A DNA stretch of 60,892 bases from a virus (lineage: Duplodnaviria; Caudoviricetes): IMG/VR virus record IMGVR_UViG_3300046777_001724, positions 1 through 60,892 of that record. One strand, 5' to 3'. The notes beneath the pieces are model-generated. The model saw only the letters and a list, made by a program, of their open reading frames with translations. It ran no database searches and had not been told where the DNA came from. The translations under genes and the position numbers were made by a program. Of this stretch, positions 11,940-42,631 are shown one piece after another. The number at the start of each line of letters is the position of its first letter. Positions within the stretch are counted from its first letter, which is position 1.

Positions 11940-12186
11940 TACGCATCCGTGTGTACAATGCTTCTATGCATCTTTCTGCATCAGGTCTTGTCATTAAACT
12001 TAGTGCCGATGAGATCTCAGACTTAAGATTGAATATTACATACTGCAGAATCTTTCTTTTTCTGTCTTTCTCATTCTTTGTATTTATTTGAGAAATAAAC
12101 GATTCTATTTCTTCTGGTTCTAAAACTTTGTATTTAACATACACATTTAGGTCCGGAACATATATTTGATATAACTTCATTCTCAT
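11860..12186 (-). CDS. Probable N-terminal domain of the Clp ATPase (extra base at 11949)
   Basis: Removing one base gives EALYT-GCV-MLNPGLD, in frame with 10755..11939. Confidence 0.6.
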   Translation of the reverse strand: MRMKLYQIYVPDLNVYVKYKVLEPEEIESFISQINTKNEKDRKRKILQYVIFNLKSEISSALSLMTRPDAERCIEALYTRMRNVESWIGHRLLGSNCICISSWQSRHG

Positions 12187-12776: not shown

Positions 12777-13757
12777 ATGGAAGATTCAAAAGCATTAGAA
12801 GTTGCTATCGCTCAACTAGAGCGACAGTTTGGTGCGGGTTCAGTTATGAAGCTGGGTTCGTCAGAAGTTCAACCCTGGCCAGCAGTACCAACAGGTGCTA
12901 TGACGCTAGACAATATTTTAGGAATTGGTGGTTTGCCAAGAGGTCGCATTGTCGAAATCTATGGTCCAGAATCATCAGGTAAATCAACAATTGCATTGAC
13001 TGTTGTAACAGAAGCTCAGAAGATGGGACTCAAGTGTGCATACATTGACGCAGAGCATGCATTGGACCCAGTATACATGCAAGCACTTGGTGTGAATCTT
13101 GATGAATTAATTTTCTCCCAGCCAGACTACGGCGAACAAGCTCTAGAAATTGTAGACCGCCTTGTTCGTACGGGCGAACTGGGTGTTATCGTTATTGACT
13201 CAGTAGCTGCACTTATTCCTAAGGCTGAGCTTGAAGGCGAGATGGAAGCAGCTCAGATGGGCTTGCAAGCACGTCTTATGGCTAAAGCTATGCGTAAGTT
13301 AACTGGTCTTGCCTCTGAGAATAAAACACTATTACTTTTCATCAACCAGCTTCGTAATAAGATTGGCATTATGTTTGGTAATCCTGAGACGACACCTGGT
13401 GGTATGGCACTCAAGTACGCATCATCTGTTCGTATCGATTTGCGCAAGAAAGAAGACCTCAAGTCCAAAGACGGAGAAGTCATTGGAGTAAAGGTTAAAG
13501 GTAAGATTATTAAGAATAAGATGTCTCCTCCGCTAAAGATAGCTGAGTTCGATATCATGTATGGAAAAGGTATAGATCAATATGGATGTCTTTTTGATGT
13601 TGCACTGGATAAGGGAATCCTTAGCCAAAAAGGTGCGTGGGTTCAATACAATGGTGAGTCGTTTGCTCAAGGTCGTGACAATGCGATCGAAAAGCTAAAG
13701 ACAATGCCAGAGCTTATTGACATGATCAAAAACCATAATGGAAAGAAAAATGACTAA
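12777..13757 (+). CDS. recA: RecA recombinase
   Basis: GGLPRGRIVEIYGPESSGKST, DAEHALDP, IDSVAAL, FINQLR, ETTPGGMALKY. Confidence 0.98.
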   Translation: MEDSKALEVAIAQLERQFGAGSVMKLGSSEVQPWPAVPTGAMTLDNILGIGGLPRGRIVEIYGPESSGKSTIALTVVTEAQKMGLKCAYIDAEHALDPVYMQALGVNLDELIFSQPDYGEQALEIVDRLVRTGELGVIVIDSVAALIPKAELEGEMEAAQMGLQARLMAKAMRKLTGLASENKTLLLFINQLRNKIGIMFGNPETTPGGMALKYASSVRIDLRKKEDLKSKDGEVIGVKVKGKIIKNKMSPPLKIAEFDIMYGKGIDQYGCLFDVALDKGILSQKGAWVQYNGESFAQGRDNAIEKLKTMPELIDMIKNHNGKKND

Positions 13758-16377: not shown

Positions 16378-16707
16378 ATGGCACAATTCACCATCTTCGC
16401 GTTGATCATTCAGATGATCAGCTCGAATCCAAAAGCATACAGCGAAGCTTGTTCAGACGCATTGGTCTGGAATGACCTTCTCTGTGCAGACAACTTGCAG
16501 AATGGTATCTACCATCTCTACATGTGTCATCCAGCAATTCTTCGTGAGGTTCCATACCTCGTAGAAGAAGTGACCATTGCTGAGATTAAGAAGGCGTTGA
16601 ACATGCCTGATAATCATTGGCATTCATACAACCGTGCATCTCTTGAAGAGATTGCTGCTGCTACCCGCATTGATTTGTCGGGTCGCCCAGTAATTAGCTG
16701 GAGATAA
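16378..16707 (+). CDS. Hypothetical protein
   Basis: AGGAGG SD; terminator downstream. Confidence 0.75.
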   Translation: MAQFTIFALIIQMISSNPKAYSEACSDALVWNDLLCADNLQNGIYHLYMCHPAILREVPYLVEEVTIAEIKKALNMPDNHWHSYNRASLEEIAAATRIDLSGRPVISWR

Positions 16708-16777
16708 TCAACACAAAGAAGAACCTCAGTCGTACAGGACTGGGGTTTTTCTTTTATGGGTAGGTTAAAGACCTTCT

Positions 16778-16925
16778 AGTCCTGGTTATTGGGGACTATA
16801 AATAAACTGTAAGTCCGATACTTACGTAATAACAGGAACCATGCGAATGATACTTATCATGCTTAATCGTGAGATTAAGAATAACTATGTATTAGGAAAT
16901 GCACGAGCCTTACGACAACAGTGCA
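16778..16925 (+). ncRNA. Structured 5' leader with tandem pseudoknots, copy A
   Basis: Homologous to 17722-17847 and 23095-23180, with compensatory base changes. Confidence 0.65.
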
Positions 16926-16943
16926 TAATAAAGGGGAATTAAC

Positions 16944-17318
16944 ATTTCCACAACACATAACACACCATTGTTCCCTTACTCAAAGGGATTCAATCCAGCA
17001 TACCCAAATCGCAGGTATGAGTCACAGTATCCTGGCGTCCAACAAGCACCATTGGGATTCTGGGGTAATGACTTCGGTGGCAATATGCGTCGTCCTGTAC
17101 TGACAAATTATACCATTGTTGGTCGTGACACTGGCATCTTGTACCTGCGTTCAAAGACAGGCGATTCCAATGACATCTTTGTAATCAACTTCCATACAGA
17201 TCCTCATTACTTTGAGTATCATTTTCTTGGCAAGAAGGCAAGTTTTGTAGGAAGCCTTGAATGGGACAACATTGCACAAGGCCATTATTTTACATGGTCT
17301 TGCAAGCTTGAGGGTTAA
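16944..17318 (+). CDS. Hypothetical protein (possible ATT start at 16944; TTG at 16968)
   Basis: AAGGGG SD 7 nt before an in-frame ATT. Confidence 0.65.
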   Translation: MSTTHNTPLFPYSKGFNPAYPNRRYESQYPGVQQAPLGFWGNDFGGNMRRPVLTNYTIVGRDTGILYLRSKTGDSNDIFVINFHTDPHYFEYHFLGKKASFVGSLEWDNIAQGHYFTWSCKLEG

Positions 17319-17426
17319 TAACTCTTAAAAAAGAATCCCCTGCTACACATCCAGTGTAGTGGGGGTTTTCTTTTTATGGGTAGATCCAAGACTTTGTAGG
17401 TCATCTATTCAGAAAGGAGGGTGAAC

Positions 17427-17594
17427 ATGTTTGAAGTTCACAGTCCAGACTTTGGCACATACATTCTTTGCGAGCACTGCTACAAAGAAGAAAAAGCCAA
17501 GTTTGCAAATGCTGAGTTTCTCAGCGTTGCAAAACTTAAAGAAGCAGATCACCTTAACTGCCATAAGTGCAGTCTTGGTACTCTTCTTTATTAA
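17427..17594 (+). CDS. Small CxxC..CxxC protein (55 aa)
   Basis: AAAGGAGG SD; MFEVHSPDFGTYILCEHC..NCHKC. Confidence 0.75.
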   Translation: MFEVHSPDFGTYILCEHCYKEEKAKFANAEFLSVAKLKEADHLNCHKCSLGTLLY

Positions 17595-17721
17595 AGTCTG
17601 GTAATTCCGAATAAGATTCGGGGCTAGCACATAGCCTGGCAACAGAAGTGTGCAAAAAGAATTACCCCTGGGGAGAAATCCCTGGGGGTTTTCTTTTTAC
17701 GGTTAGGTTTACAACCCTACC

Positions 17722-17847
17722 AGTCCGAGCTATTGAGGACTTTAAATAAACTGTAAGCTGGATGCTTACGTGATAGTAAGAACCATGCGAATGACGCTGG
17801 CATGTAAAACAACTTGCATTAGGAAACACATGAGCCTTAACAGTGTG
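17722..17847 (+). ncRNA. Structured 5' leader with tandem pseudoknots, copy B
   Basis: See copy A; ends just before the AAAGGAGGT SD. Confidence 0.65.
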
Positions 17848-17865
17848 TTAAAAGGAGGTGTCCAA

Positions 17866-18135
17866 ATGGACGCAATCGTAAACTGGTTTCGTGGACTTCC
17901 ACGGAACATTCAGATCATCATGTTGCTGGCAACATTTATCTTCATCTTGGATGAGATCGTTATTGGTCTTTTCTTTGGTGCATGGGATGTGACCGGCTTC
18001 ATTATTCGTAATGTCAACTGGGGAGCAGTTCTGCTTGCTCTCTTGGCATTTGGTGGATATGCAGTCTACCGCTGGTTCACCAGTGACGAAGAAGATGAAG
18101 AAGAAGAGTACGACAGCTGGGATCTCTACCGCTAG
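17866..18135 (+). CDS. Small membrane protein with acidic tail
   Basis: AAGGAGGT SD; two hydrophobic segments. Confidence 0.8.
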   Translation: MDAIVNWFRGLPRNIQIIMLLATFIFILDEIVIGLFFGAWDVTGFIIRNVNWGAVLLALLAFGGYAVYRWFTSDEEDEEEEYDSWDLYR

Positions 18136-18237
18136 TCATACGCAAGAAGATGTTCCCCTGGGGCTTTGGCTCTGGGGAACTCTTTTTATGGGTAGTAACC
18201 AGGTCATAAGACCTAACCCAAACCACGGAGGTAAAAC

Positions 18238-18378
18238 GTGGCTTACAAGAAGAACACCCCGGTGCTGCCGTTCCAGCAGCCCATCCACCCCAGGTTCAAG
18301 GAGCAGGACTGCTTCGAGACCCGCCGCCACTGGAGGCACATCCCCAACCACAACGTCAAGCCGAAGACGCACAAGTAG
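18238..18378 (+). CDS. Small basic protein (46 aa, GTG start)
   Basis: GGAGGT SD; nearly all codons end in G/C; followed by a terminator. Confidence 0.65.
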   Translation: MAYKKNTPVLPFQQPIHPRFKEQDCFETRRHWRHIPNHNVKPKTHK

Positions 18379-18462
18379 GCAACAAAGAAAGCCCCAGGGT
18401 GAGTTCCTGGGGTTTTTCTTTTATGGGTAGGGCTAAGGCCCCTAAAACAAAAGGAGAAACCC

Positions 18463-18999
18463 ATGTCGTCATCAGACAACAACAAGAAAGGTGGTATCAT
18501 GAAGAAGTTCATTTTCTTCACTTGCCATAACTCATATGTCACCATAACGGTAGACAAAGCTGGGGACATCGTTAAGATGTTCTGGTTCCAACCAGGCACA
18601 TCGTGTCGTCGTCTCGAGTTGATCAATCCAAAGATCATGCTCGATGGTGCCACATTCGATGGCCCCTTCTTGCCATTCAGTGAAGCACACTGGAACATTG
18701 GTGGAAACTTCAGGATTGCTGCTCAAGACATTTTCTGTCTGAGCATTAAGCCAAAGTATATCCCTACATGTAAGGAATGTGGTACATTCCCAGTGTTTGA
18801 ATGGCGATGCTTGTCACACGATGGTATTCGTGAGTACAGCCAGGGATACAACCCTAAGTGCATTATGTGCGAAGGAATGGAAGAAGAACCACTTCCATTC
18901 GTCTCACGCGCATCTGACATCGGTAAAATGATGAAAGATGCACTCGATGCAATCCTCAACTTTACAACAGATGAGGAGGACGGAGGAGACTTCGTCTAG
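18463..18999 (+). CDS. Hypothetical protein with CxxC pairs
   Basis: AAGGAG SD (alternative start 18499). Confidence 0.75.
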   Translation: MSSSDNNKKGGIMKKFIFFTCHNSYVTITVDKAGDIVKMFWFQPGTSCRRLELINPKIMLDGATFDGPFLPFSEAHWNIGGNFRIAAQDIFCLSIKPKYIPTCKECGTFPVFEWRCLSHDGIREYSQGYNPKCIMCEGMEEEPLPFVSRASDIGKMMKDALDAILNFTTDEEDGGDFV

Positions 19000-19113
19000 A
19001 ACAACCAAATAAAGATAGAGCCCCGGTGCAGTACCCCCCGCTGCACTGGGGTTCTTCTTTTATGGGTAGATTTAAGATCCCTATTCTGGGACACCCAACA
19101 GAAAGGAGATGCG

Positions 19114-19422
19114 ATGAGCATCTATTGGAAGAGGAGAATAGCAGTTTTGCTTATTCTCATGATGACATTGTTTGTCATTAAGAAGGCAGATAATACTGTC
19201 AAGGAATACCTGGATAATGACTGGGCTTGTAAGCATCTGATGGTGATCACTGTTCAGAAGGACATGACTCTATCTGAAATTGTGGAGCAGCAGATTACCA
19301 ATGGAAACTGTCAGGGATACGAGGGGCTTCTTGCTTATCTCGTTGAAAAGAACAGTGACTACGGTTCGATCATCTATCCAGGTGAAACAATTACCATCGA
19401 TTCCTACGGAAGCGATAAGTAA
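19114..19422 (+). CDS. Membrane-anchored LysM-like protein
   Basis: YWKRR plus TM helix, then ITVQKDMTLSEIV...IIYPGETITI. Confidence 0.65.
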   Translation: MSIYWKRRIAVLLILMMTLFVIKKADNTVKEYLDNDWACKHLMVITVQKDMTLSEIVEQQITNGNCQGYEGLLAYLVEKNSDYGSIIYPGETITIDSYGSDK

Positions 19423-19461
19423 TAAAGGTCTCATGAAAACTGAGAAAAGAAAGGAGGAGCC

Positions 19462-19548
19462 ATGTTGGCAACATTCATCGTGTTCTACGGACTCATGATT
19501 GTCACCATCAAGGTGATGCGGAAGGCGTTCCGCGCAGAACTGGGTTAA
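19462..19548 (+). CDS. 28 aa single-TM peptide
   Basis: AAGGAGG SD; MLATFIVFYGLMIVTIKVMRKAFRAELG. Confidence 0.6.
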   Translation: MLATFIVFYGLMIVTIKVMRKAFRAELG

Positions 19549-19830
19549 ATCCCAGAAAAGAGTACCCCAGGGTCAGTTCCTGGGGTTTCTCTTTTATGAG
19601 TAGGCCATAGACCCCTACGAGGAAAGGACAATCTCAAATGAGATGTCTATGTTACATATTAATGAAACGGCACACGTGTTTGTGTGCTGTTGTCCGTATT
19701 GCTGCTACCGGGACCTCTCGTGATGGGTGTAAGTGATTAGTTATCTTAATCTTTTTTTATGAGTAGATCCCAGACTTTAGAATAAAGTCGTCTACCCAAA
19801 CAGAGCGGTCTGCATTGGAAAGGGCAGATC

Positions 19831-20109
19831 ATGAACATCAAAGAAGAGAAAGACTTCTTAATCAGTCAGATTGAGGTTTATAAGGCGATATTAAAGTCAC
19901 CTCACGCTACTGATAAATATAAGGCAGCTATAAGCACAAAGCTTCAATCTTTTGAGGCACGATATGTGTTAATAACAACACCACGCAACTACATGGTTGA
20001 TTCCACGCCTCACTACAAAGAGGTTTGGATTGACGGGGAATTATTCCTTGAATGCACATCATGTGGTGCAGACGGTCCCGGCAACTGTGGATGCTGGGTA
20101 ACCGACTAA
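19831..20109 (+). CDS. Hypothetical protein with C-terminal Cys cluster
   Basis: SD upstream; terminator downstream. Confidence 0.7.
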   Translation: MNIKEEKDFLISQIEVYKAILKSPHATDKYKAAISTKLQSFEARYVLITTPRNYMVDSTPHYKEVWIDGELFLECTSCGADGPGNCGCWVTD

Positions 20110-20382
20110 ATAAAAACAAGAAAGAAAACCCTCTATTGGTCGTCCGCTCGGACCAGTAGGGGGTTTTTCTTTTATGGGTAGGACCCAAACTACATAAGGA
20201 GCACACGTGTGTTTAAAAGACATTGACAAATTACATAGACAGATGACGAGTAGAACTATTTAACTAGGTCAGTATGATTAGTTACTTTAATCTTTTTTTA
20301 TGGGTAGATCTCAGGCCTCAGGTCTGGTAAACCCAACCGCCGATGGTCGGCCACCATCAACACTGCATCATGGAGGTGCAAA

Positions 20383-22962
20383 ATGAAGCTCAATCGAGCC
20401 TCAGACCATCCCGGGGCAAATCAGCCACCGGGCAACCCAGAGGGTAACAACCCTCGCAACGGAAAGGGGGAAGCGATGAAGATCATCACATTCCTTCGCA
20501 GTCAATTCCGTGTCGTAACCAATTCGGTAACGGCTGAGGAAAAGGCTGCATACGACGAGTCCATCAAGACACGTCGTCCACAAACCATCAACGGCAACAC
20601 CGTGATGGCAGTCCAGACAGGTGAGTGGATCTACTCACTCCTGGAGAACAAGCTCAACACACGGGGCATCAAGTTCCGTTTGGGCATGATCAGCATTCAA
20701 GACTTGCAGAACGGCATCAGGCACAACTGGTGGACCGTTGACTCGCTCGTCGACGACTGCACTCATGCATGGGCAAACGCAAGCTATGCCTTCTTCTTGA
20801 AGGTTGAGAACATGCGCAGCAATACCAGTGAGATCATTAAGGACTTCGGTCTGGAAGAACTCGGCTTGTTGGCTCTCGACTCAAAGAAGACGAGCAAGCG
20901 TTCACAGGAAATCACACGCATCACACAGGTACGTGCATCTGGAAAGATGGAAATGCTTGATTACGAGGTCTTTGACTCTGGTGATCAGCAGGAAATCTTC
21001 TTCGATGGACCAATCATGGTGCGTGAAAGCTTCCTGCTCAAGGCAGCATTCCGTATCCGTGATGAGCGTGTTCGCAAGCATCACATTTGGATGATCAAGT
21101 CCGGTGAAATCGGACCAATGATCGCTCGTATCCAGATGGATAAGGGTCTCATCAAGGGACTTTTGCGAGCCGTACCGGACGACCAGATCAACAGCGACAT
21201 TGTGTTCCATAAGAGCGCATTGAAGCCTGAGATCAAGTCTACGGACGGATACTGGCATTTCACTGCCTTCCGTTTGAATGTCCTCGGCAAGAAGCTGTGG
21301 GACATGCAGACTGCTGTCAACAACCACAACTGGCTGTACACAGAAGAGCGTTTCTATGAGGATCTTGGGACAATTGTTCCTGAGCTTCAGGCAACGCTTG
21401 ACAGTGGTGAGCTTCCTTCCTGGATTCTTCATCAGCACGACGAAAAGCATGATGATGATGGCATTCCCGTCATCGAGCATGCAACGGCGTACTGGTCAGA
21501 TCAGGCACGTAAGTTCTCTCACGTCAGATGGCAGAACAATGGTCTTCCGATTAGCGCATCGGCAAACATCATTCGCATGGCTTTCGGGTCAGTTGTGAAT
21601 CAGATGACTGCTGCTCGCAAGCGTAAGTCCATGTGGGTTCCGAAGTCACATGCATTTGCTGCACCGTGTATCACTGCTGAGGCATTGACACAAATGGGTG
21701 GCTACCAGCATGAGGACTGGATGAACTACTACGTCTGGTACATGCCTAACGTGGGACTCGTTGTTCCTGGTTCACGTTTTGCGGAGACTGTGTCTTTGCA
21801 CGACGGAATGGACTCGGACGGTGACGTTCTGAGCGTCGAACACATCATGCTGTGGTCTTCTGATGAAGAAGTGACTGAGCGTCGTAAGGAACAGGGTATT
21901 GTCCCTGCTTTCATGACGGTGCCAAGCACTCCTGAAGAAGCAATTCATGCAGGTGTAATGATGCGCAGTCCGAACGGTCCGGGTGGATACTCGATCCAGT
22001 TGATTGACCACGAGAACATGCCATTCATGCATACTTCGACAAAGCTGCAGGTCATTGACCTTGCTAGCACACCGGAGTCGCTGGATGACTTGCTCTACGA
22101 AGTGGGAGCTCAGCCAATCGATGGTTTCCAGACCTACACGAATCAGCCAATGAGCCGTGACAATGCCAAGGAGATGATCAAAGCACAACTTGCCAACCCT
22201 GGTGTTGGTTCGTATGCAAATGCGATCATGTTCTGGGCTGCAGCAAACGGTCCGAGCTATCCCGACTTCCTCCTTACGGACAACAACTCAATCGTTGATA
22301 TCTGTCAGCAAACGGCAGATCTTGACGCATTCGAGATGATTGCTGAAGGCGTGAAGTCCATGTGGGACGAAATGGCAGCATGTGACATGGAGGTTGATGA
22401 ATTCATCCTTCATACTCGTGTTCCCAAGAAGTTCCGGGAGAATCCGGATGAAACGGCATGGACCATTGTTGATGGATCATGGAGCAGAATGAATCGTCGT
22501 TACCTTGCGACGATCAAAGAGCTCAACGACATCATCTCTGAAGGATCTTTCAAGATTCGTCAGCAGAGCTGGTTGGTTGAATCTCTCATCAACAAGATTC
22601 CGACACTTTCACCTGAGACTGTTCAGTGGGCTCGTACCTTCCGCATGAAGTATGAGAACATGTTGACCAGCGTCGATGCAAAGTACAACGAATTCGATGG
22701 AGACAACATTGACCGCTTCATCAAGATGATGGCAGCTGCAAATCGTTCCGACGAAGTTGCTGTCATTGTTCAGATGATGGTGGATGAAATCATGGAAACC
22801 TCCTACCCGGAGAAGTATGCGGTGGCTCTCTACCGTTACATGATCGATCCAAAGTACTCCACTTACAAGTGGGGCGTCTCGGACCGTGTCATCTTCCAAG
22901 GCGGAAAGCCTGGTCAAACGACAGTGATGGACCTGTTCATCGAGGGAATCACCTCCCTCTAG
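20383..22962 (+). CDS. Single-subunit two-barrel (YonO/RdRP-like) RNA polymerase candidate 1
   Basis: FDGPIMV, ARIQ..GLIKG, GMDSDGD (DSDGD at 21811-21825), RSP, VGSYAN, IVD; alternative start 20476. Confidence 0.72.
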   Translation: MKLNRASDHPGANQPPGNPEGNNPRNGKGEAMKIITFLRSQFRVVTNSVTAEEKAAYDESIKTRRPQTINGNTVMAVQTGEWIYSLLENKLNTRGIKFRLGMISIQDLQNGIRHNWWTVDSLVDDCTHAWANASYAFFLKVENMRSNTSEIIKDFGLEELGLLALDSKKTSKRSQEITRITQVRASGKMEMLDYEVFDSGDQQEIFFDGPIMVRESFLLKAAFRIRDERVRKHHIWMIKSGEIGPMIARIQMDKGLIKGLLRAVPDDQINSDIVFHKSALKPEIKSTDGYWHFTAFRLNVLGKKLWDMQTAVNNHNWLYTEERFYEDLGTIVPELQATLDSGELPSWILHQHDEKHDDDGIPVIEHATAYWSDQARKFSHVRWQNNGLPISASANIIRMAFGSVVNQMTAARKRKSMWVPKSHAFAAPCITAEALTQMGGYQHEDWMNYYVWYMPNVGLVVPGSRFAETVSLHDGMDSDGDVLSVEHIMLWSSDEEVTERRKEQGIVPAFMTVPSTPEEAIHAGVMMRSPNGPGGYSIQLIDHENMPFMHTSTKLQVIDLASTPESLDDLLYEVGAQPIDGFQTYTNQPMSRDNAKEMIKAQLANPGVGSYANAIMFWAAANGPSYPDFLLTDNNSIVDICQQTADLDAFEMIAEGVKSMWDEMAACDMEVDEFILHTRVPKKFRENPDETAWTIVDGSWSRMNRRYLATIKELNDIISEGSFKIRQQSWLVESLINKIPTLSPETVQWARTFRMKYENMLTSVDAKYNEFDGDNIDRFIKMMAAANRSDEVAVIVQMMVDEIMETSYPEKYAVALYRYMIDPKYSTYKWGVSDRVIFQGGKPGQTTVMDLFIEGITSL

Positions 22963-23094
22963 ACAAACCGCAAAAAGGCGGAAAATGATCCTACGGGATC
23001 CTGAGACTGGAGTGCCCCTGGGGAAACCTGGGGGCATTCCTTTTATGAGTAGGTCTATGACCTCACTCTAGGGGCCTGAGCCGAAGCTACAGGA

Positions 23095-23180
23095 GGAACC
23101 ATGCAATGATGCAAGCATGAACAGTCGGGAGACTGTAGTACAAAAGCGCATTAGGTAACACGTGGAACCTTAACCATGTG
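23095..23180 (+). ncRNA. Structured 5' leader, copy C (two 3' pseudoknots)
   Basis: GGAACCATGC..GCATG..GCATTAGG..CACGTGG..CCT..CCATGTG. Confidence 0.55.
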
Positions 23181-23201
23181 CAACAAAGAAAGGGGCCAGA
23201 A

Positions 23202-23843
23202 ATGGCACTCACAATCCTGCAGGCGATCCTCGCGGTCGTCTTGCACAACAACCAGTCCATGGAGGAGGCATTTGCCTTCTTCGCCGTCAACACCCGGGAT
23301 GGGTTCACCTACCAGAATGGTAGCGTCCACAAGATCGACTGGATCCGTGGCGAGAACACTGCTCCGTACTACCGCATCGACAAGAAGGGTCGCCTCTTCG
23401 TCGCTCGCAAGTTCGAGAACATTTCATCTTGGGCAATCGACACCAACAAGGTCAAGAACAACCTGCGTGTCAAGCCTGCAATGATCCAGATGAACGTGCT
23501 TCGTGCGTCTGGAAAGCGTGGTGGATACCTCATTCGCCTGCACGTGCAGACTCCGATCTTGGCTCGCACCAAGAAGTTCCAGTTCCACGGCAAGTGGGTT
23601 GGATACTGGGCAAGCGAAACCATGTTGCAGAGCGGCATCTGGACCAAGTCAGCCAACGGAAAGTTTGGTAAGGCGACTTTGATCAACGACGTCATCAGCT
23701 ACGAAACTGTCATGAAGTCCGTGGAGATGCTGAACCATGCCCTGGATAAGGACCGAAACACCAATCTGGTAATCGGTGCCAACAGCATGTTCGGCAAGTC
23801 GTACACCGCAGAAGAATGGATGAACAAGTCCGACCTCTTCTGA
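23202..23843 (+). CDS. Basic hypothetical protein
   Basis: AAAGGGG SD before ATG 23202; strongly GC-ending codons. Confidence 0.8.
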   Translation: MALTILQAILAVVLHNNQSMEEAFAFFAVNTRDGFTYQNGSVHKIDWIRGENTAPYYRIDKKGRLFVARKFENISSWAIDTNKVKNNLRVKPAMIQMNVLRASGKRGGYLIRLHVQTPILARTKKFQFHGKWVGYWASETMLQSGIWTKSANGKFGKATLINDVISYETVMKSVEMLNHALDKDRNTNLVIGANSMFGKSYTAEEWMNKSDLF

Positions 23844-31239: not shown

Positions 31240-31312
31240 GCCCTGGTAGCTCAGTGGATAGAGCAACGGACTTCTAATCCGCAGGTCGTAGGTTCAAGTC
31301 CTACTCAGGGCG
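31240..31312 (+). tRNA. tRNA-Arg(TCT)
   Basis: Canonical cloverleaf; anticodon loop CTTCTAA. Confidence 0.93.
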
Positions 31313-31367
31313 CAAATAAACAATCCTCACAATAACCCAAAAACATGACATTCAAGGAGACATCACC

Positions 31368-31739
31368 ATGACAATCCCTAAAGACTATACAGACTGTTAT
31401 CTCGCTCTCTACAAGATCAATGAAGATGGCACTATTGATTCTACCTATATTAAGCCTATCGTGCGGGCGACCAGAACTTCTGGTGAACAGCTAGACTTCT
31501 ACGGTGTTCGAGCCAGCAAGTACGGAATCAAGGTTCCTACAGGCTCTCAAGAGTGGGGCATCTTTCACTATGACGGTTCTGAATTTAAGCTATTGGTTTC
31601 CGGCCAGATTCCTGAGCCATCAACCAAGCGTATTCATGAACTGTCAGATGGTCGAATCATCTATGTTCGACGTGCAAAGAGCAACCTGTCCATCTCCATG
31701 TCTATGTACCCAAAGAGCTTTAAGTCCATAACAATTTAA
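31368..31739 (+). CDS. Hypothetical protein
   Basis: AAGGAG SD. Confidence 0.75.
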   Translation: MTIPKDYTDCYLALYKINEDGTIDSTYIKPIVRATRTSGEQLDFYGVRASKYGIKVPTGSQEWGIFHYDGSEFKLLVSGQIPEPSTKRIHELSDGRIIYVRRAKSNLSISMSMYPKSFKSITI

Positions 31740-31801
31740 AAACTCGCAAATTTCATACTATCTTATAAACCAATATAACTATTACCCCAGAAGGAAGTAT
31801 A

Positions 31802-32314
31802 ATGATTCTTTCATTTACTCTCAACAATATTGCTTTCCAGGCACAAGGTGATATCTTTGATATTGCAGAACTGGTAGCTGCCCTTGACAAAAAGGCTGCA
31901 AACGTCAAGATTTTGGCTGAGAAGACCAAGTCTTCTGAGACCAAATTCGACAAGCCAGTTTCTGCCAACCTTAGCCAAGAGCAACGTGACTATATCTCAG
32001 CTCTGTTTCCTTACCCAATCAGCAATAGAACCAACACAGGTAAGCCTGCTTACATGATGGCTCTTATGCTTGATGGTAAGCCACACACAGTAGCTGAACT
32101 CTGCAAGCTTGGCAATTGCACCCAGTCCACTATCAGAACAGTAATCACACGCCTTCAGGCAAGTGGTTCAACTGTCGAAGTGAACAGCAATCGCCTAGCC
32201 AAGAACACCATTGTTCAAGTCACAAGCATCACTTCACAAAAGCTTGCTCCAGCAAAGCGTAAGAATCCTGTGAAAGTTAACCCTTCACAAGGGTTTCAGA
32301 ACCTCTCAATTTGA
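31802..32314 (+). CDS. Winged HTH protein
   Basis: PHTVAELCKLGNCTQSTIRTVITRLQASG. Confidence 0.65.
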   Translation: MILSFTLNNIAFQAQGDIFDIAELVAALDKKAANVKILAEKTKSSETKFDKPVSANLSQEQRDYISALFPYPISNRTNTGKPAYMMALMLDGKPHTVAELCKLGNCTQSTIRTVITRLQASGSTVEVNSNRLAKNTIVQVTSITSQKLAPAKRKNPVKVNPSQGFQNLSI

Positions 32315-32324
32315 GACACGGTCT

Positions 32325-32452
32325 GATGTATCCCGGGTGCTGATTTACCTCCTTAATCAGCATGATCTTTTAACCAAATCTGTACCCACACATTCCTAAA
32401 GATCCGCTTGTCTAACAGCAACAAGCGTCCGGGGTAACATCGGTTCTTTTTT
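32325..32452 (+). ncRNA. Multi-branched structured RNA with an anti-SD loop, ending in a U-tract
   Basis: Outer stem GATGTATCCCGG/CCGGGGTAACATC; inner hairpin GTGCTGATT-TACCTCCTT-AATCAGCAT. Confidence 0.5.
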
Positions 32453-32474
32453 AAAAAGGCACCAGAAACTTTCA

Positions 32475-32951
32475 ATGAAAACAACTAACGTATATGCGAA
32501 TGATTCAGATAAGAATCTCGATAATAATACTCCTCCAATGGACCAAGGAATTCTTGAAGTCCTGTCAGTCCATAATTCCCTCTGGGATAAGGAGGAAAAA
32601 TTAAATTATCGTGGCAAAACTTACGACATATATAATCCATCTCATGGAGGATATTCATCCGTAATCTTGCCTAATGAGAATGGCTATAACTTCCTGTGGA
32701 TTACCCAAAATTTAAATAAATCCACCTATGGATCCATGGCCATTCTTCAAGCAAGAACTCAAGGAGACGACAAGAGAAATACTTGGATAGTCGACAACAA
32801 CAATGGTACCTTCAAGTACGTCGGTATAATTGCTACATGTAATTATTTCGACGGCAAGAAAACTCAGCTCATCGAAAGATACACTGAGCATGGCACCATT
32901 GTGGTATACTCAAGTGATCCTATGATCGTCTCTGAACGATCTAGATACTAA
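32475..32951 (+). CDS. Hypothetical protein
   Basis: ORF track. Confidence 0.7.
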   Translation: MKTTNVYANDSDKNLDNNTPPMDQGILEVLSVHNSLWDKEEKLNYRGKTYDIYNPSHGGYSSVILPNENGYNFLWITQNLNKSTYGSMAILQARTQGDDKRNTWIVDNNNGTFKYVGIIATCNYFDGKKTQLIERYTEHGTIVVYSSDPMIVSERSRY

Positions 32952-33126
32952 TTCAAAAATGTTGACATTGCCAAATTATATACCTTTGGCATGTCTTGTA
33001 CATATATAATATATGATTTGTAATCGATATATTTGATATGTTAACAAAACTACTATAAAATACCATTTTTTACATCAATACTTATACAACTTTATATATC
33101 TTTTTTACACTCAAAAAGGAAATAAA

Positions 33127-33378
33127 ATGCCTAAGCCAAGCAAAACTCCAGCTATTGAAGCCTTCGTAAACGCTAACGTTGGTAAGACATTTACTACTAA
33201 GGAAATGTGCGAACAGATAGGTTGTTCACTACCTACTCTGTTGAGCTATCTTAAGAACAACGTCATGAAGTTTACAATGGTTTCATACGGATCCTACCTC
33301 ATCAACTCAGATGTAACATCTACCACAACACTCAATTCAGCTGATTCCATCACTGATGAAGAGTGGGAAAATAATTAA
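33127..33378 (+). CDS. Small HTH protein
   Basis: FTTKEMCEQIGCSLPTLLSYLK; AAAGGA SD. Confidence 0.7.
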   Translation: MPKPSKTPAIEAFVNANVGKTFTTKEMCEQIGCSLPTLLSYLKNNVMKFTMVSYGSYLINSDVTSTTTLNSADSITDEEWENN

Positions 33379-33677
33379 TTTTAATTAATTATCTGGTACT
33401 ATATTCTCTATCGTTTTAAAAATAAACGATAGCGCAGAGAGTTTATTCAAAGGCACTAGCCTATTGAGTAGACAATTCTAAATTAACTAATCTATGCGGG
33501 AGGTGTGCTAAATGCGTAAGAAAAATTCTGAGCAACCAAGCACCTATTCAAATGAGATCTACCTTAAGGTTCTCATTTTAATAGCCAACCGACTCGAAGA
33601 TATTTCGAAAGAAATTAAATTACTTCGTGAGCAGAATGCTATAGATTCCGTCAAGGAGAACTACTCTGAGTAAACAC

Positions 33678-33706
33678 TTGTTACATCACCTACAACATGA
33701 TACAAT
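33678..33706 (+). promoter_or_regulatory. Sigma70-type promoter of the Rpf-like gene
   Basis: TTGTTA-N17-TACAAT followed by a ~190 nt GC-rich leader. Confidence 0.6.
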
Positions 33707-33899
33707 ATCAACCATGCCCGAACAGCTCGGGCAGGGGGTCCAATCCCCTACGTAACAGAGAAATACTGTGAAGTCGGAGAGGCAACCTACTGCCATACTG
33801 TGACGGGCATATCGTATTTGTCCGCACATCTTCGGTTTCGCAACCTGCGCGTTTGCTAATGAGACGTAAGTCTCAAACCCACACGAAAGGAGCGATACC

Positions 33900-34772
33900 A
33901 TGCGCAACATACGAATACTATTATTATCATTAATAACGGTCATATCAGGTCTCATCGAGACCTCAGTAGCTTCAGCTGCTACTGTCACAGGAGGTGTCTC
34001 GGAAACACAATCCGAGCCCCGAAGTACCAACCTGCCCAGTAATCCAACTAGATGGAAAACAGTCACATTTAAAATGGGACCATCCATCAAGTACTGGAAA
34101 AAAGTTGCACAATGTGAGACTGGTCAAGACTGGCAAGACGGTGGCAATTGGGGTGGCGGTCTAGGAATAGCCACATCCACATGGAAGGCTTATGGAGGCA
34201 AACAATTTGCTTCTCATCCTTCTAAAGCCACTGTGCTACAACAAATAGTTGTAGCTAACCGTATTGCTATCTTTGGTTGGCAAACCAATGAATTCATAAC
34301 ATTAGACGATAGACTTAATGGTAAGACATTCTTTAGACCAGCCGTTGGCTTCTACGGATGGGGATGTATTAAAAATAATAAATACCTCCATCCAACAAAT
34401 GATAGTATATATACAGCTAAATTACCTGTAGGCAAAGAATTCTATTGTCCTCAGTATGAAGATGTATTCAAGAAATATGCTCTTCCAGCAAAAGTCTTTT
34501 CCTACATTGCTTGGCGTGAATCCAGATGTAATCCTGGAGCCGTCAATGCAACTTGGGAAAATGGACAAATTGTCTGGACCTTAAATAGGAACGGAACATA
34601 TGACTCAGGTCTACTTCAAATTAACTCTTCATGGTTTAAAACATTAAGAGAACAATTTGGGTATGAACCTAATGATTTATTTAATCCAGCAGTCAATGCT
34701 CTATTTGCTAGCTGGATCTTACATTTTTCTAGTGGAAGATTGTCCAACTGGAACGTCAAAGCTAAAATGTAA
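33900..34772 (+). CDS. Secreted Rpf-like transglycosylase fused to an SLT-type lytic transglycosylase
   Basis: Signal peptide; WKKVAQCETG..GGGLGI...TWKAYGG..QQIVVA (Rpf domain); IAWRESRCNP..DSGLLQIN (SLT domain). Confidence 0.85.
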   Translation: MRNIRILLLSLITVISGLIETSVASAATVTGGVSETQSEPRSTNLPSNPTRWKTVTFKMGPSIKYWKKVAQCETGQDWQDGGNWGGGLGIATSTWKAYGGKQFASHPSKATVLQQIVVANRIAIFGWQTNEFITLDDRLNGKTFFRPAVGFYGWGCIKNNKYLHPTNDSIYTAKLPVGKEFYCPQYEDVFKKYALPAKVFSYIAWRESRCNPGAVNATWENGQIVWTLNRNGTYDSGLLQINSSWFKTLREQFGYEPNDLFNPAVNALFASWILHFSSGRLSNWNVKAKM

Positions 34773-34914
34773 ATAATTCATAATAATTCAAAACTTAAAA
34801 ATAGGGGTCTCATTTACTTATGGGATCCCTATTTCTAATTCAAGATTCGTTTTTTATCTAATTCAAAAAAACGAACTTAATATGTATTCAATACAAATAT
34901 AAGGAACACACTAA

Positions 34915-35349
34915 ATGCTGTTAACAATGATGCTAATTTTGGCCGTCACTTCATCAGTTCTCGAATTGATGATAGCTGCCAAAGTTCCAGCTTGGCGTAG
35001 ACTATCTGCCAAAAGTCCACTGTTCAACTTGTTGAACTCTTTGTTCATCTCATTTCTTATGGGTGTTGCTTTTGGAGCAGGCGGTCTTATCGCCATGGGT
35101 GCAGGTGTTATATCAACTGTAATATCTGTACCCGGTTATAAGTTCCTTTACTGGAATTATGACAGCGAACAAGCATTGGCCCATGGTGGTAATATGATGA
35201 GACACATTAAAAACAAGTGGTCTCAAGCACTTAAGGATCTAGCCAAAGTTATCTACTCTATTATTAGAGTAATTACATTCCCCGTTTGGGGAACTCGGCT
35301 TGCTGTACAAAAGTATAATAACTTGAAGCTACGTCTTTCTCGCTCTTAA
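34915..35349 (+). CDS. Membrane protein
   Basis: About three hydrophobic segments; upstream of polymerase 2. Confidence 0.75.
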   Translation: MLLTMMLILAVTSSVLELMIAAKVPAWRRLSAKSPLFNLLNSLFISFLMGVAFGAGGLIAMGAGVISTVISVPGYKFLYWNYDSEQALAHGGNMMRHIKNKWSQALKDLAKVIYSIIRVITFPVWGTRLAVQKYNNLKLRLSRS

Positions 35350-35384
35350 AATATAATTCAATAAACATTCCATAAGGAGGAATA

Positions 35385-37964
35385 ATGACATCATCATACT
35401 CACCTGTGGTCCGGTTGCATTCTATGCACAATGGACCACTCCGTTCAATGAACGATTATCAATATGGATTCTACGACTGTGGAATCCTTCGGACTGCTTT
35501 GCAGTACGTTGATGGCTCTAGTTTCCGTATGGCAACTTTGCCAATTCCAACAACTCCATATGAAGCTCAACTAGCTGAAGCAATCATTCGTCATCCTGAC
35601 ATCTGCTATGCTGTGGTAGATAAGAATAAGATTGCCCTTGTTATCGTAGAAGACAACCCTGGTTGGCTTGATATCTTCACAAAGATGGGCTATGAAGTGT
35701 TCTCTGGTGAGAAGACTGGCAAGCGTCTCAAGACCTTCCATCGAGCCGCACTTCTTAACGCACACTTTGAGAAGGACGAAATTAACATTAAAGTTGTTGA
35801 TCCTCGTGCATACACCCGTCATGACTTCACTAATTCTAATGATGAAGATTACATCATTGAATCTCTTTGTACCGAAGAAGTAACAGACAGACTTCTTGAT
35901 GGCGGTCTTGTTATTTCTCATCGTCTTATTCAGAAGGCTGTTAATAACATTCCTGTTTATCAGCCACAAAATACTGACGACAACAAAGAATACTATTACG
36001 ACTGGCGTATCCGCAATAAGATGATTGATAATCTTCTTAATCAGCGAGTATACAACGTTCGCATTATCTACAAAGACGGTTTCATCAAGGGCAATGCAAT
36101 TGTCCGATATGATCTTCCTGAAGGTGTGGACGTTATCACCGCTCCACAAAATATCAAGAATGAAATTAAATATCACAATGGATACCAATTCTTAGCAGAA
36201 CCACAATCTTCTCACGAACGAGTAATTACTGACGATCAGACTGTCATCAATCTTCCTAAACTCTTCCGTAAAGCAGACATGACTATGTGGCTTGAAGAAG
36301 AATACAAGAAGATGTTTGATGCAGCTACTAACTCTCAGCTTCTTAATAACTGGAAGGAACTCTACAAACGTGAGTTCCGTAACATTCACAGTTCAGAAGA
36401 TGAAGAAGCAAACTCTCGCATGAGCTATGTTGGCTACCGTTGGGTTGCATCTGGAATGAAAATTACAGATTCACCTTGGCTGTTTGAAACTCTTGCAGTT
36501 TCTCACGCCAAACCCTTTAGACCCAACAAAAATCGTTCAGGTCGTATTCCCATTCCATGTTCAGTCTATGAGCAGGTGATTCCTGAATCTCTTGCTCGTA
36601 TGGCAGGATACGATATCGAAGTAGAGAATGACACCATTCAAAGAATCGATGAACTTGGAGTTCATGTCGTTAACGACATTGATTGGCTAGAAATGTACGC
36701 CAGCCATGGCGGACATGACGAAGACGATTACTTCAAGTGCTTCTATCGTGAGATGGAAGGCGGATTCTGGGACGGAGAAAAGGTTGTCATTGTCGTTCGT
36801 TCACCAAATGGTTATGGCGAATATACAATCTTCAAGTATGTAGAAGGTCAATGGGCACCAAAGTGGCACAAAGCTGATGGCACAGAAGTAACATTCCCGA
36901 AGGTGAATGGACGTAACTGGCCTAAGCGACTTAGCCACGCTGTCAACATAGGCGATGTTAAGTATGGAAAGTTTCCATCAGAACTTCGTCCTAAAACTAA
37001 AATGACCGGACTATATACTGCAGACAATGTTATCCACGACATGCGCATTGCTATGTCTGGTGGTAACGTTGGCGGATATGTAAACGCAGTCATGGCTCAC
37101 TCTCTTGTACTTCATCGTCATCGTTCTTATCAGCTCTGCTCTCTTGAGAAGGCTATCGATAAGTGCATCAACCCTGATGACATGGATGACGTTCGAGCTA
37201 TCGACCAAGAAGCTGAAAATATTGTCAGAGAAATTATTGATTCCAAGAAACCAATTGATATTGAATTCTGGGAACGTCGTGGATTTTCTCGTTATCTAAA
37301 GAAGGATGACGAGATTACATTCCACGAAGGAAAGATTTCTCAACTCAATAAACTTTCAGGTACATTCTTCATGGATTATTCAAAGAAGGTGAGAGACTGG
37401 GCTCAGGAAAATGCTAGACCTGATGAGATCATTACTCAACTAGGTCAACGCATGTACTTCCGTGCACTACCAATTCTCAAATCCTTTAGAAGTAATATTT
37501 ACAGAGTCAACTCTTCTGAAGCAACTTCTGCTTCTGGAAGTATTGTTCGTCAGTCTTGGGAATCAATGTATGATTCTATTGTTCAAGCAATTGAATCTCA
37601 CGAACGCATTGAAGATCAACACGATTTCGTGCTTGGTCTTTATGCTGTTTCATTGAACGTCCCAACTAGTGACGGTAAATTTACTGATCAGATTGTACTC
37701 AACAGATTCGTTTATCCTTATTTGGAAGCAGCTTTGCATTTCTATGGGATTACTCGTAATCCTGTTTGCACAGCTACTCCAGATGGAGATGTAAAAATCT
37801 CGTATCTTAAGATGGTCGAATGGCATTACCAAGATGCTTACGGCAATCTTAATAAGTATACAGATCCTCTTGAATTCCAGAAAGCCCACGCTCAGGATTC
37901 ACCTGTTCAGTTTACATCTGTAACCAAACAATCATCCAATCCTAGAACTACATCAATGTACTAG
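35385..37964 (+). CDS. Single-subunit two-barrel (YonO/RdRP-like) RNA polymerase candidate 2, variant DxDD motif
   Basis: Paralog of 20383..22962: LDGGLVIS, VRII..GFIKG, RIPIP, GGHDEDD (DEDD at 36717-36728), RSPNG, VGGYVN, AID. Confidence 0.65.
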   Translation: MTSSYSPVVRLHSMHNGPLRSMNDYQYGFYDCGILRTALQYVDGSSFRMATLPIPTTPYEAQLAEAIIRHPDICYAVVDKNKIALVIVEDNPGWLDIFTKMGYEVFSGEKTGKRLKTFHRAALLNAHFEKDEINIKVVDPRAYTRHDFTNSNDEDYIIESLCTEEVTDRLLDGGLVISHRLIQKAVNNIPVYQPQNTDDNKEYYYDWRIRNKMIDNLLNQRVYNVRIIYKDGFIKGNAIVRYDLPEGVDVITAPQNIKNEIKYHNGYQFLAEPQSSHERVITDDQTVINLPKLFRKADMTMWLEEEYKKMFDAATNSQLLNNWKELYKREFRNIHSSEDEEANSRMSYVGYRWVASGMKITDSPWLFETLAVSHAKPFRPNKNRSGRIPIPCSVYEQVIPESLARMAGYDIEVENDTIQRIDELGVHVVNDIDWLEMYASHGGHDEDDYFKCFYREMEGGFWDGEKVVIVVRSPNGYGEYTIFKYVEGQWAPKWHKADGTEVTFPKVNGRNWPKRLSHAVNIGDVKYGKFPSELRPKTKMTGLYTADNVIHDMRIAMSGGNVGGYVNAVMAHSLVLHRHRSYQLCSLEKAIDKCINPDDMDDVRAIDQEAENIVREIIDSKKPIDIEFWERRGFSRYLKKDDEITFHEGKISQLNKLSGTFFMDYSKKVRDWAQENARPDEIITQLGQRMYFRALPILKSFRSNIYRVNSSEATSASGSIVRQSWESMYDSIVQAIESHERIEDQHDFVLGLYAVSLNVPTSDGKFTDQIVLNRFVYPYLEAALHFYGITRNPVCTATPDGDVKISYLKMVEWHYQDAYGNLNKYTDPLEFQKAHAQDSPVQFTSVTKQSSNPRTTSMY

Positions 37965-38112
37965 GATAAATCCTCAAGGCCGGTTTAGTCATATACCGGA
38001 AAAGAACCAGCGCCAGCCTGGCTTCAGAAATATGACAGCTGGCACTCTATACTACTTTAAAAGGAGATATTTATGTGTTGATAAATTTATAATTTAACAT
38101 GAAAGGTAAGTT

Positions 38113-38556
38113 ATGAATTTTCTACATGAATTCAACCAACCCAACTGTGGTCTTCACACTTGTACAAAGTGTTCCACAACTCCCATCAATGAACATTATC
38201 GAGAAGAGCTCAACGAGGATTACTTGACACAGTCATTTCCTACTCTCATTACTCCTCAGAATGCTCTTCAATCTATCAAGTTTGCACTTGAAGATGTCAT
38301 GGAATCTATGAACTGTACTCAAACAGCTCATGTTCATGACGATGGAAGTATTACTGTTGTCGACGGACCCAATGTTAGAGGTGCTCTTTACCACCTCTTT
38401 AATTCTATTAAAAACACTTTAACTAAAGCTGGCATTAACCTTTGGGAATACAGTGATGCACTTTTCCTAGAAAATGCCAACATTGATCCTGATTCAATTT
38501 CCTTTGAAGACTTTCTTGATCGCTTTCTTGAAAGCAACAAACCTGACGAAGAATAG
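38113..38556 (+). CDS. Hypothetical protein
   Basis: SD, ORF track. Confidence 0.75.
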   Translation: MNFLHEFNQPNCGLHTCTKCSTTPINEHYREELNEDYLTQSFPTLITPQNALQSIKFALEDVMESMNCTQTAHVHDDGSITVVDGPNVRGALYHLFNSIKNTLTKAGINLWEYSDALFLENANIDPDSISFEDFLDRFLESNKPDEE

Positions 38557-38605
38557 TTCTTCATCATAAATAAAACAATTTAATTTTATTCTTTTAGGAG
38601 AACCT

Positions 38606-38983: not shown

Positions 38984-38990
38984 CGATATT

Positions 38991-39599: not shown

Positions 39600-39608
39600 T
39601 GATATACT

Positions 39609-39803: not shown

Positions 39804-39862
39804 ATTTCTTAAGTTTATAAAATAAATTTTCTATCATTAATTCAACAGTATAAGGAGTAAAC

Positions 39863-41542: not shown

Positions 41543-41546
41543 TCTA

Positions 41547-42474: not shown

Positions 42475-42631
42475 TATTCCACAACCTCTTACTTGTAAAG
42501 ACTGTGGAATTAAATCTTTGCAAGTAAGTAAAAACAAATTATATAAAGTCAATTTATGTGTCCCTTGTTTTGTCCAAAGACAAATTCAAAATAAAGGGTA
42601 AGGCAAAAAACTTTTATTGAAAGGACAAATT

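Follow-up and report, generated by a model that had tools for sequence, protein, structure and literature searches.

Why should one and the same folded RNA stand directly in front of the ribosome binding sites of several unrelated genes of a single phage? The question is raised by a 60,892-base stretch of DNA, here called the window, which is a complete IMG/VR virus record (IMGVR_UViG_3300046777_001724; Caudoviricetes) and for which a first-pass annotation, made from the letters alone, had described three copies (A, B and C) of a 5' leader RNA built of up to three pseudoknots, PK1 to PK3. Judged by how its helices vary among ten distinct sequences, the element is a genuine, strand-specific structured leader RNA, and it may represent a new RNA family, though one whose general kind is already known. 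We propose, with a probability of roughly 0.4, that this modular leader acts in cis at the 5' ends of some phage early mRNAs and would there gate translation initiation.

Architecture and comparative support of the leader

The three copies are genuine paralogues on the + strand: all lie where the first-pass annotation had placed them and can be aligned with one another. With a covariance model built from B and two foreign homologues only (R1), A scores 96.5 bits (E = 1.4e-20) and C 19.6 bits (E = 0.0084), and no other site of the window rises above 9.2 bits. With filters off, a core model likewise returns only A, B and C from the window (next-best match 10.1 bits), and the models R2 and R3, with filters off, find no copies there outside the set formed by A, B, C and a module in a 3' untranslated region (UTR) that is discussed below. 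All the pairings listed in the first-pass annotation are present in the sequence, including the AGTCC/GGACT stem of PK1 (P1) and the helix between the loop of that stem and a downstream strand (GTTATTG:TAATAAC in A, GCTATTG:TGATAGT in B), and C indeed lacks PK1, with a plain hairpin in its stead (Table 1). The architecture that emerges comprises a core of ~75-95 nt, running from the P2 hairpin to PK3, and optional parts, namely the 5' H-type pseudoknot PK1 and hairpins inserted in A-rich third loops.

Pairs were counted on two MAFFT alignments, one of domain 1 with eight sequences and one of the core with nine; copy G, near-identical to B, was omitted from both, and copy C, which has no PK1, from the first. 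Paired cells amount to 98.5% in domain 1, as against 31-56% with the partners slid by 1-3 columns, and to 97.2% in the core, as against 19-53% when slid, values obtained on the same sequences from which the structure was derived and with a shuffle control that ignores relatedness. The helix between the PK1 loop and its downstream strand is paired in 100% of cells, with a both-side exchange of U-A for C-G at one pair and one-sided changes through G-U at two others, and P1 has one both-side change (A-U to U-A). Both-side changes are also found at three of the six pairs of the hairpin inserted in PK1 and, in the core alignment, at four of the six pairs of the PK3 long helix, which takes the forms ATGCAC:GTGCAT, ATACAC:GTGTAT, ATGTAC:GTACAT, ACACAT:GTGTGT, ACACAT:ATGTGT and CACGTGG:CCATGTG; the covariation claimed at the outset is thus borne out in the PK1 helix, the inserted hairpins and the PK3 long helix. 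Both helices of PK1 are comparatively supported, as an H-type pseudoknot demands. Furthermore, only the + strand gives standard pairs at the G-U positions, and a coding sequence is ruled out by indels that measure 17-19 nt and do not come in multiples of three. Together, the compensatory changes, the excess of paired cells and the strand-specific G-U pairs argue for a real RNA structure.

The proposed pseudoknots are, moreover, regular in their build: each has a first loop of 1-2 nt and a third loop rich in A, third loops are where the optional hairpins are inserted, and the 3' strand of PK2 adjoins the AGG of PK3, a regularity that speaks for the three-pseudoknot picture. Within the third loop of PK1, D has no hairpin and E and F have one of a different sequence; within that of PK2, a GNRA-loop hairpin is confined to A, J and C. 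Folded RNAs typically have such hairpins, variable and dispensable but fixed in their points of insertion. Common to all copies are the conserved loops AACCAUGC, AAUGA, AUUAGG and CCUU, followed 1-6 nt after CCUU by AAC. Since these loops are conserved between divergent paralogues, their retention points to specific recognition rather than to mere stability.

Distribution, start codons and gene shuffling

Exact-pattern scans followed by model scoring yielded ten distinct sequences overall, namely A, B, C and seven more in related phage contigs (Table 1), all of them in syntenic early regions 3' of recA and with one to three copies per contig fragment. Whole-record searches of G001 and G002 gave one copy each, and L087, L089 and L101 were searched within their loci only. 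The recA gene of the window is itself full length (12777-13757; Pfam RecA, E = 1e-118), conserved and syntenic in related contigs, and lies just 5' of the variable early region. In viral contigs, pattern scans gave real copies in one of two, two of 59 (L004 and L041, judged by reading contexts) and two of 25 stretches, the remaining 23 of the last set scoring at most 14.9 bits with R1, off the pattern site; a fourth scan gave two stretches, both known already. A metagenome scan returned 16 loci, nine of which carry ten real copies and seven of which are chance matches (one of these, L095, was read and rejected). The ten pattern matches obtained from 185,579 cellular genomes are all spurious (L113 was inspected and discarded), a distant-mode DNA search of 16700-18200 against 50,697 phage records gave no match, the B protein as sole query found no relatives, and a four-sequence protein alignment as query found only the two contigs already known. 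The runs listed from the same study bear only freshwater or lake-water metagenome labels, and the listing gave no RNA run containing the region. So far, the element is confined to one clade of uncultured freshwater phages.

The leader keeps a fixed relation to the start of the gene behind it. In all nine sequences measured, the start codon follows the 3' end of PK3 by 16-21 nt (17, 17 and 21 nt in A, B and C), and the three copies of the window do end just 5' of a Shine-Dalgarno sequence, as had been noted. The genes themselves are unrelated, also as first described: those of A, B and C show no BLASTP similarity to one another at E <= 10, and with the gene behind copy I (L087) the same leader precedes four genes without a mutual match at that threshold. 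Compared with PHROG and Pfam, the downstream proteins gave no family above threshold, and their Atlas leads all lie below 0.9. Near the Shine-Dalgarno sequence, the A-type frame contains no ATG, GTG or TTG; an ATT found 7-8 nt after it is conserved in A, H, I and J (16944-16946 in the window, 491 in L094, 3374 on the - strand of L087 and 3351 on the - strand of L089) and is followed by an in-frame 6-nt indel just 3', so that A-type genes probably begin at ATT. The B-type genes behind E and F (L041 and L100) start at TTG, and weak start codons (ATT or TTG) are found with six of the ten distinct copies. A conserved leader peptide (ATGCGAATG...) was considered and rejected: its frame is open and continuous with that of the gene in B and D, falls out of register in E and F, and shrinks to a two-codon open reading frame (ATG CAA TGA) in J and C.

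Comparison of the contigs further suggests how the leader reached unrelated genes. L087 and L089 have at least 300 nt of upstream sequence, the leader and the first ~8 codons in common, and their genes are unrelated beyond that point; copy H, otherwise of the A type, is B-like in its middle section; and the cassette with a gene of 55 amino acids that lies between A and B (17320-17720) is absent from L094. By this comparison, cassette shuffling occurs at these repeats, and the gene swap, the mosaic copy and the cassette loss together indicate that the leader travels as a module with the ribosome binding site and the first codons.

The leaders are set among repeated terminator-promoter units. 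A promoter-like motif, TTTTATGGGTAG(G/A)T, occurs in 14 copies on the + strand between 16278 and 24674, each right after a stem-loop and T-run and with a weaker RACCY extension on its 3' side. At up to three mismatches the motif has 20 matches in the window, compared with 6.7 +/- 2.5 in shuffles (none of 100 shuffles reached 20), and the region holds 23 terminator-like sites, compared with 7.0 +/- 2.7. The motif does not fit a scan for the sigma-70 consensus, which found 8 sites where 11.9 are expected, and a phage-specific promoter is therefore possible. With such units throughout, almost every small gene here would form a unit of its own; the genes that they bound are without assigned function, and three of the 14 units carry the long leader and 11 short ones. 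The first-pass annotation had A and B begin ~4 nt after this motif, its class 1, which holds only if the weaker 3' extension is counted in, for the 14-nt motif itself ends 12 nt 5' of A and 13 nt 5' of B.

A stem-loop terminator followed by a conserved promoter-like motif, repeated around variable genes, is also the arrangement of PeSLs, which are reported as composite promoter-terminator cassettes of T4-like phages (PMC2839356, PMC4122927). The likeness extends from the fusion of the terminator to a putative promoter, 14 times around small variable genes, to the gain and loss of cassettes between relatives. PeSLs, however, are boundary repeats rather than a folded leader, and the pseudoknot leader is an extra module on three of the 14 units.

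Two further structures accompany the element. In the 3' UTR of a Cys-rich open reading frame of 55 amino acids (17428-17594), 10 nt 5' of a terminator, lies a module with a PK3-like pseudoknot that shares the signature CACAT-AGCCT-AACAG-GTGTG and has GGCT:AGCC as its short helix instead of AGG:CCT. A regular expression derived from A, B and C has five matches on both strands of the window, which are A, B, C, this module and one other. The minimum free energy (MFE) z-score of the module is -2.54. Because it was found by that expression and not recovered by R1 or R2, we treat it as a lead only, a possible partial copy. The other structure is a tRNA-like minihelix directly 5' of the leader in D, E and F (L004, ~11968-12016; L041, ~1925-1975 on the - strand; L100/L101), where the window has the terminator and promoter motif; the element of these copies is not preceded by a promoter-like motif. 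It combines a 7-bp covarying acceptor stem (CCTGC/GCAGG versus CCTAT/ATAGG), a short D-like stem and a canonical T arm with no anticodon arm, was called neither by ARAGORN (run on L004) nor by Rfam (run on L096), and probably marks a processing site.

Table 1. Coordinates of the leader copies, their flanking motifs and downstream genes (positions in the window unless a contig is named), with the further distinct copies of the element
Feature	Position	Strand	Details
Promoter-like motif before copy A	16752-16765	+	TTTTATGGGTAGGT; directly after stem-loop and T-run
Copy A, whole element	16778-16927	+	R1 score in text
A, PK1 domain	16778-16833	+	P1 16778-16782/16793-16797; loop 16785-16791 with 16827-16833
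A, PK1 inserted hairpin	16809-16814/16820-16825	+	GTAAGT/ACTTAC
A, PK2 domain	16840-16893	+	P2 16840-16843/16858-16861; AATG 16846-16849 with TATT 16890-16893
A, PK2 inserted GNRA-loop hairpin	16862-16868/16873-16879	+	
A, PK3 domain	16894-16926	+	AGG 16894-16896 with CCT 16908-16910
A, PK3 long helix	16899-16904/16921-16926	+	ATGCAC with GTGCAT
A, gene start	16931-16949	+	Shine-Dalgarno AAGGGG 16931-16936; probable ATT start 16944-16946, then TCC
Gene after A	16944-17318	+	124 amino acids; no known family
3' UTR module, possible fourth, partial copy	17607-17653	+	hairpin 17607-17612/17616-17621
3' UTR module, PK3-like pseudoknot	17622-17653	+	GGCT 17622-17625 with AGCC 17633-17636; GCACAT 17627-17632 with GTGTGC 17648-17653
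Promoter-like motif before copy B	17695-17708	+	TTTTACGGTTAGGT; after terminator 17664-17689
Copy B, whole element	17722-17849	+	
B, PK1 domain	17722-17777	+	P1 17722-17726/17737-17741; 17729-17735 with 17771-17777
B, PK1 inserted hairpin	17753-17758/17764-17769	+	GTAAGC/GCTTAC
B, PK2 domain	17784-17820	+	P2 17784-17788/17800-17804; AATG 17790-17793 with CATT 17817-17820
B, PK3 domain	17821-17848	+	AGG 17821-17823 with CCT 17835-17837; ACACAT 17826-17831 with GTGTGT 17843-17848
B, gene start and gene	17852-18135	+	Shine-Dalgarno AAGGAGG 17852-17858; ATG 17866; hydrophobic protein of 89 amino acids, acidic tail
Promoter-like motif before copy C	23041-23054	+	after terminator 23009-23040
C, plain hairpin	23075-23093	+	CCTGAGC ... 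GCTACAGG; at position of PK1 in A, B
Copy C, core only	23092-23182	+	P2 23100-23104/23115-23119; AATG 23105-23108 with CATT 23149-23152; identical to L086
C, GNRA-loop hairpin	23121-23126/23131-23136	+	
C, PK3	23153-23180	+	AGG 23153-23155 with CCT 23168-23170; CACGTGG 23159-23165 with CCATGTG 23174-23180
C, gene start and gene	23190-23843	+	Shine-Dalgarno AAGGGG 23190-23195; ATG 23202; protein of 213 amino acids, no known family
Copy D	L004		identical to L091, L098
Copy E	L041		identical to L096
Copy F	L100		identical to L101
Copy G	L094:944-1072		near-identical to B
Copy H	L094:341-474		
Copy I	L087		
Copy J	L089		

Proposed translational control, related RNAs and rival explanations

As possible functions, the first-pass annotation had named an RNase J roadblock, a translational enhancer and a new riboswitch. 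The fixed spacing to the start codon, the AUU and UUG starts and an alternative pairing in A-type leaders favour an effect on translation initiation. In the mechanism that we propose, the folded PK2-PK3 core, placed at the 5' edge of the ribosome binding site, would set the accessibility of that site. The segments UAGGAAAYR and CCUU, which would be locked within PK3, resemble the Shine-Dalgarno sequence and its complement; were PK3 to unfold, the freed nucleotides could pair with the real Shine-Dalgarno sequence and the start-codon region. Folding of PK3 and occlusion of the ribosome binding site would thereby be mutually exclusive in some copies, and initiation, often at a weak AUU or UUG, would become dependent on the fold. 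A fold-stabilising factor is presumed, which may be a protein, the ribosome or a small ligand, and temperature or co-transcriptional kinetics are also candidates for tipping the balance. We infer the PK2 and AGG/CCU pairings, the switch and any effector.

The alternative pairing is clearest in the A type. There GGAAAUG, a segment running from the AGG through the first loop to the third base of the PK3 long helix, could form a duplex with CAUUUCC, within which the AUU start lies, and CCUU is able to pair with the Shine-Dalgarno sequence. For the GGAAAUG:CAUUUCC duplex the energy is -7.5 to -9.2 kcal/mol, which 0.4-2.4% of shuffled tails surpass, and similar complementarity to the start region is found in F (GGAAAC:GUUUCC, 2.0%) and B (3.4%). 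In copy H, a G of the GGAAAUG segment has become A and both of its partners, the base opposite it in the PK3 long helix and that adjoining the start codon, have gone from C to U; as a single event, this double compensation is suggestive of the alternative pairing rather than proof of it.

Several observations count against translational gating or the fold on which it would depend. P2 (CATGC/GCATG), PK2 (AATG:YATT) and the 3-bp AGG/CCT show no covariation in the core alignment and hence are unproven, and an alternative helix incompatible with P2, ATGCG:YGYAT, fits the PK2 nucleotides equally well (43 of 43 cells paired, equally without covariation). The multi-pseudoknot description given in the first-pass annotation is supported for PK1 and, as regards PK3, for the long helix only, and it lacks support for PK2. 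The nested MFE z-scores of the copies are weak (-0.7 to -1.6), so that the case rests on covariation and not on thermodynamics; such values are expected if much of the fold is pseudoknotted, yet they lend no support. The covariation in turn stems from few independent events among ten sequences of one narrow phage clade, within which conservation and spacing may simply have been inherited. As for the switch, the start-region pairing of D, E and C is no better than that of shuffles (19-52%), whereby a switch common to all copies is not shown, and the Shine-Dalgarno sequence could stay paired in both of the imagined states. Finally, the PK3-like module also occurs in a 3' UTR, far from any ribosome binding site.

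Comparison with Rfam, proposed at the outset as the first check, identified no known family. Rfam 15 was run over the whole window at gathering thresholds and on A, B, C, L094 and L096 in E-value mode; the window yields six tRNAs only, all else being sub-threshold. The matches to alpha_tmRNA, snoRNA C/D-box, ohsC and Pistol were set aside as sub-threshold or as lying on terminators, and CsrA GGA sites, a k-turn or C/D-box, a T-box and folds like that of hepatitis delta virus (HDV) ribozymes found no support on inspection. A literature search for a described phage pseudoknot leader likewise returned nothing relevant.

Among known systems, the mRNA leaders of phage T4 carry translational operators, such as the gene 32 leader pseudoknot and the RegA targets. 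The present element resembles them as an H-type pseudoknot in a phage leader, 5' of the ribosome binding site, with several early genes potentially under one control. The gene 32 leader, however, has a single pseudoknot far upstream that serves autoregulation, whereas here up to three pseudoknots abut the binding sites of four unrelated genes, with neither sequence similarity nor a known binding protein. The riboswitches preQ1-II and SAM-II are H-type pseudoknots with an A-rich third loop and an optional embedded hairpin, next to a Shine-Dalgarno sequence, and the leader has all of these traits; unlike in those riboswitches, its Shine-Dalgarno sequence lies outside the pseudoknot. Strings of H-type pseudoknots are also known from tmRNA and from the 3' UTR of tobacco mosaic virus, with which the element has in common consecutive pseudoknots joined by short linkers and, in relatives, an adjoining tRNA-like structure. 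It differs from them in standing in the 5' leader of an ordinary gene; the only tmRNA-model match in the window is that of alpha_tmRNA over the 3' UTR module (17523-17656; 21 bits against a threshold of 50), and ARAGORN, run on the relative L004 rather than on the window, found no tmRNA. In its proposed working the element is most like phage translational operators or H-type pseudoknot riboswitches, although it can be assigned to neither.

The main rival to translational gating is a 5' stabiliser or exonuclease roadblock, in which compact pseudoknots with A-rich third loops would shield the mRNA from RNase J, or from RNase E or RNase Y entering at the 5' end, and in which, with the structure set so close to the ribosome binding site, no stretch of RNA would lie bare between it and the ribosome. 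That the element starts about 0-12 nt from the promoter-like motif agrees with such a role, as do the minihelix of D, E and F, whose probable excision would leave a monophosphate 5' end just upstream of PK1, and the PK3-like module before a terminator, which fits a decay-resistant fragment and cannot act on a ribosome binding site; the nearest terminases, moreover, are from phages of Firmicutes, and Firmicutes possess RNase J. A simple GC-rich hairpin would suffice for protection, however, which leaves the conserved loops and three elaborate pseudoknots unexplained, together with the weak AUU and UUG starts and the compensated start-codon pairing; C does without PK1 and D without the inserted hairpin. 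There is also no evidence of the ring-like fold that defines known exonuclease-resistant RNAs. The latter, which are reported from flaviviruses and plant viruses (PMC5760640, PMC8374639) and have been discussed together with RNase J (PMC5760640), likewise are compact pseudoknotted viral RNAs placed where a 5'-to-3' exonuclease would arrive; they reportedly form a ring around the 5' end from a junction and pseudoknots and lie in 3' UTRs. On balance a roadblock, though doubtful, is a serious contender; a ribozyme, an antiterminator and a pure recombination site are all weaker.

Were the PK2-PK3 core instead an aptamer for a metabolite that switches a set of early genes, its length of 75-95 nt, its conserved unpaired nucleotides, the variable GNRA peripheral hairpins and the proximity to the Shine-Dalgarno sequence would all be typical, and the occurrence of one leader on unrelated genes and the possible mutually exclusive pairing of the A type would be accounted for. 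Such a small-molecule riboswitch nevertheless appears unlikely: the regulated genes all lack assigned function and so give no clue to a ligand, no expression platform is conserved in all copies, only ten sequences are available, and no Rfam riboswitch matches even at E <= 10. The more specific proposal that the stacked core is the aptamer of a new phage riboswitch class sensing a small molecule of the host or the infection, conceivably a stress or defence signal, and thereby gating the translation of several early genes, some with AUU or UUG starts, with PK1 protecting the 5' end, is a longer shot. The put RNAs of phage HK022 act on the transcribing RNA polymerase, and a put-like RNA carrying polymerase through the strong terminators that close every gene of the region would suit the density of these terminators, the position of the leaders just 3' of promoter-like motifs and the solo PK3-like module 10 nt before a terminator; for such an RNA the fixed distance to the start codon would be needless, the element of D, E and F does not follow a promoter-like motif, and there is no similarity to put RNA or any Rfam antiterminator, which makes this very unlikely. 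We give still less credit to the repeat being kept as a recombination joint for cassette shuffling, with no RNA function. The mosaic copy H, the gene swap after the leader in L087 and L089 and the cassette missing from L094 are what such a joint would produce, and terminator-promoter repeats of this kind reportedly mediate gene shuffling (PMC2839356, PMC4122927), but a pure substrate would not keep its pairing through compensatory and G-U changes on one strand. Least credible of all is self-cleavage, with the element processing the mRNA 5' end as a Pistol-like ribozyme or as one of a new class. This reading draws on the Pistol (RF02679) match on B only, over the P1 hairpin, the loop pseudoknot and the AUAAAUA linker: like Pistol, B has a 5-bp hairpin whose loop pairs with a downstream strand and a linker of this sort. 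The score of 15.3 bits is far under the threshold of 34.5, however, and A has no Pistol match at E <= 10; the helix order differs, the 3' strand of the pseudoknot coming after the hairpin with no enclosing P2; P2, P3 and the G-U cleavage context are absent, the P2 and P3 positions of the alignment holding unrelated bases; and D is without the hairpin that would be needed as P3. In an HDV-like fold, a nested double pseudoknot, the P3 hairpin follows the 5' strand of P2 and precedes the 3' strand of P1, a position which here holds 1 nt (PK1), 6 nt (PK2) or 3 nt (PK3), so that no hairpin is possible and P3/L3 is lacking; inspection thus excludes HDV-like and theta ribozymes.

The phage and the significance of its leaders

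The completeness estimate of the record is 29%, which makes the window a fragment of a ~200-kb phage. The products encoded on it include a large terminase, a helicase, an AAA ATPase, a subtilase and RecA, along with six tRNAs. The best match of the terminase is that of Moorella phage MTATph1 (37.6% identity), and with Bacillus jumbo phages of the 0305phi8-36 type it has 28-36% identity; by these alignments it is distantly related to the terminases of Firmicute jumbo phages. The six tRNA genes are dispersed over 31240-50627 on the + strand, the one at 50551-50627 scoring just 34.5 bits. Two open reading frames of 859 amino acids, 20383-22962 and 35385-37964, are distant paralogues (20% identity over 610 amino acids, E = 2.8e-4), and both are without a Pfam or PHROG match.

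Most early genes of phages still lack an explanation, and beyond the model phages very few controls at the RNA level are known. The leader described here is a compact RNA module, moved between unrelated early genes and linked with the ribosome binding site and weak start codons, whose natural variants include forms that have or lack PK1 and forms that have or lack the inserted hairpins. If it only stabilises its mRNA, it would still document the shuffling of leaders together with terminator-promoter cassettes. If it proves to be a translational switch or a roadblock against bacterial-type exonucleases, it would constitute a new RNA family in phage gene regulation and, possibly, a portable leader part for synthetic biology.

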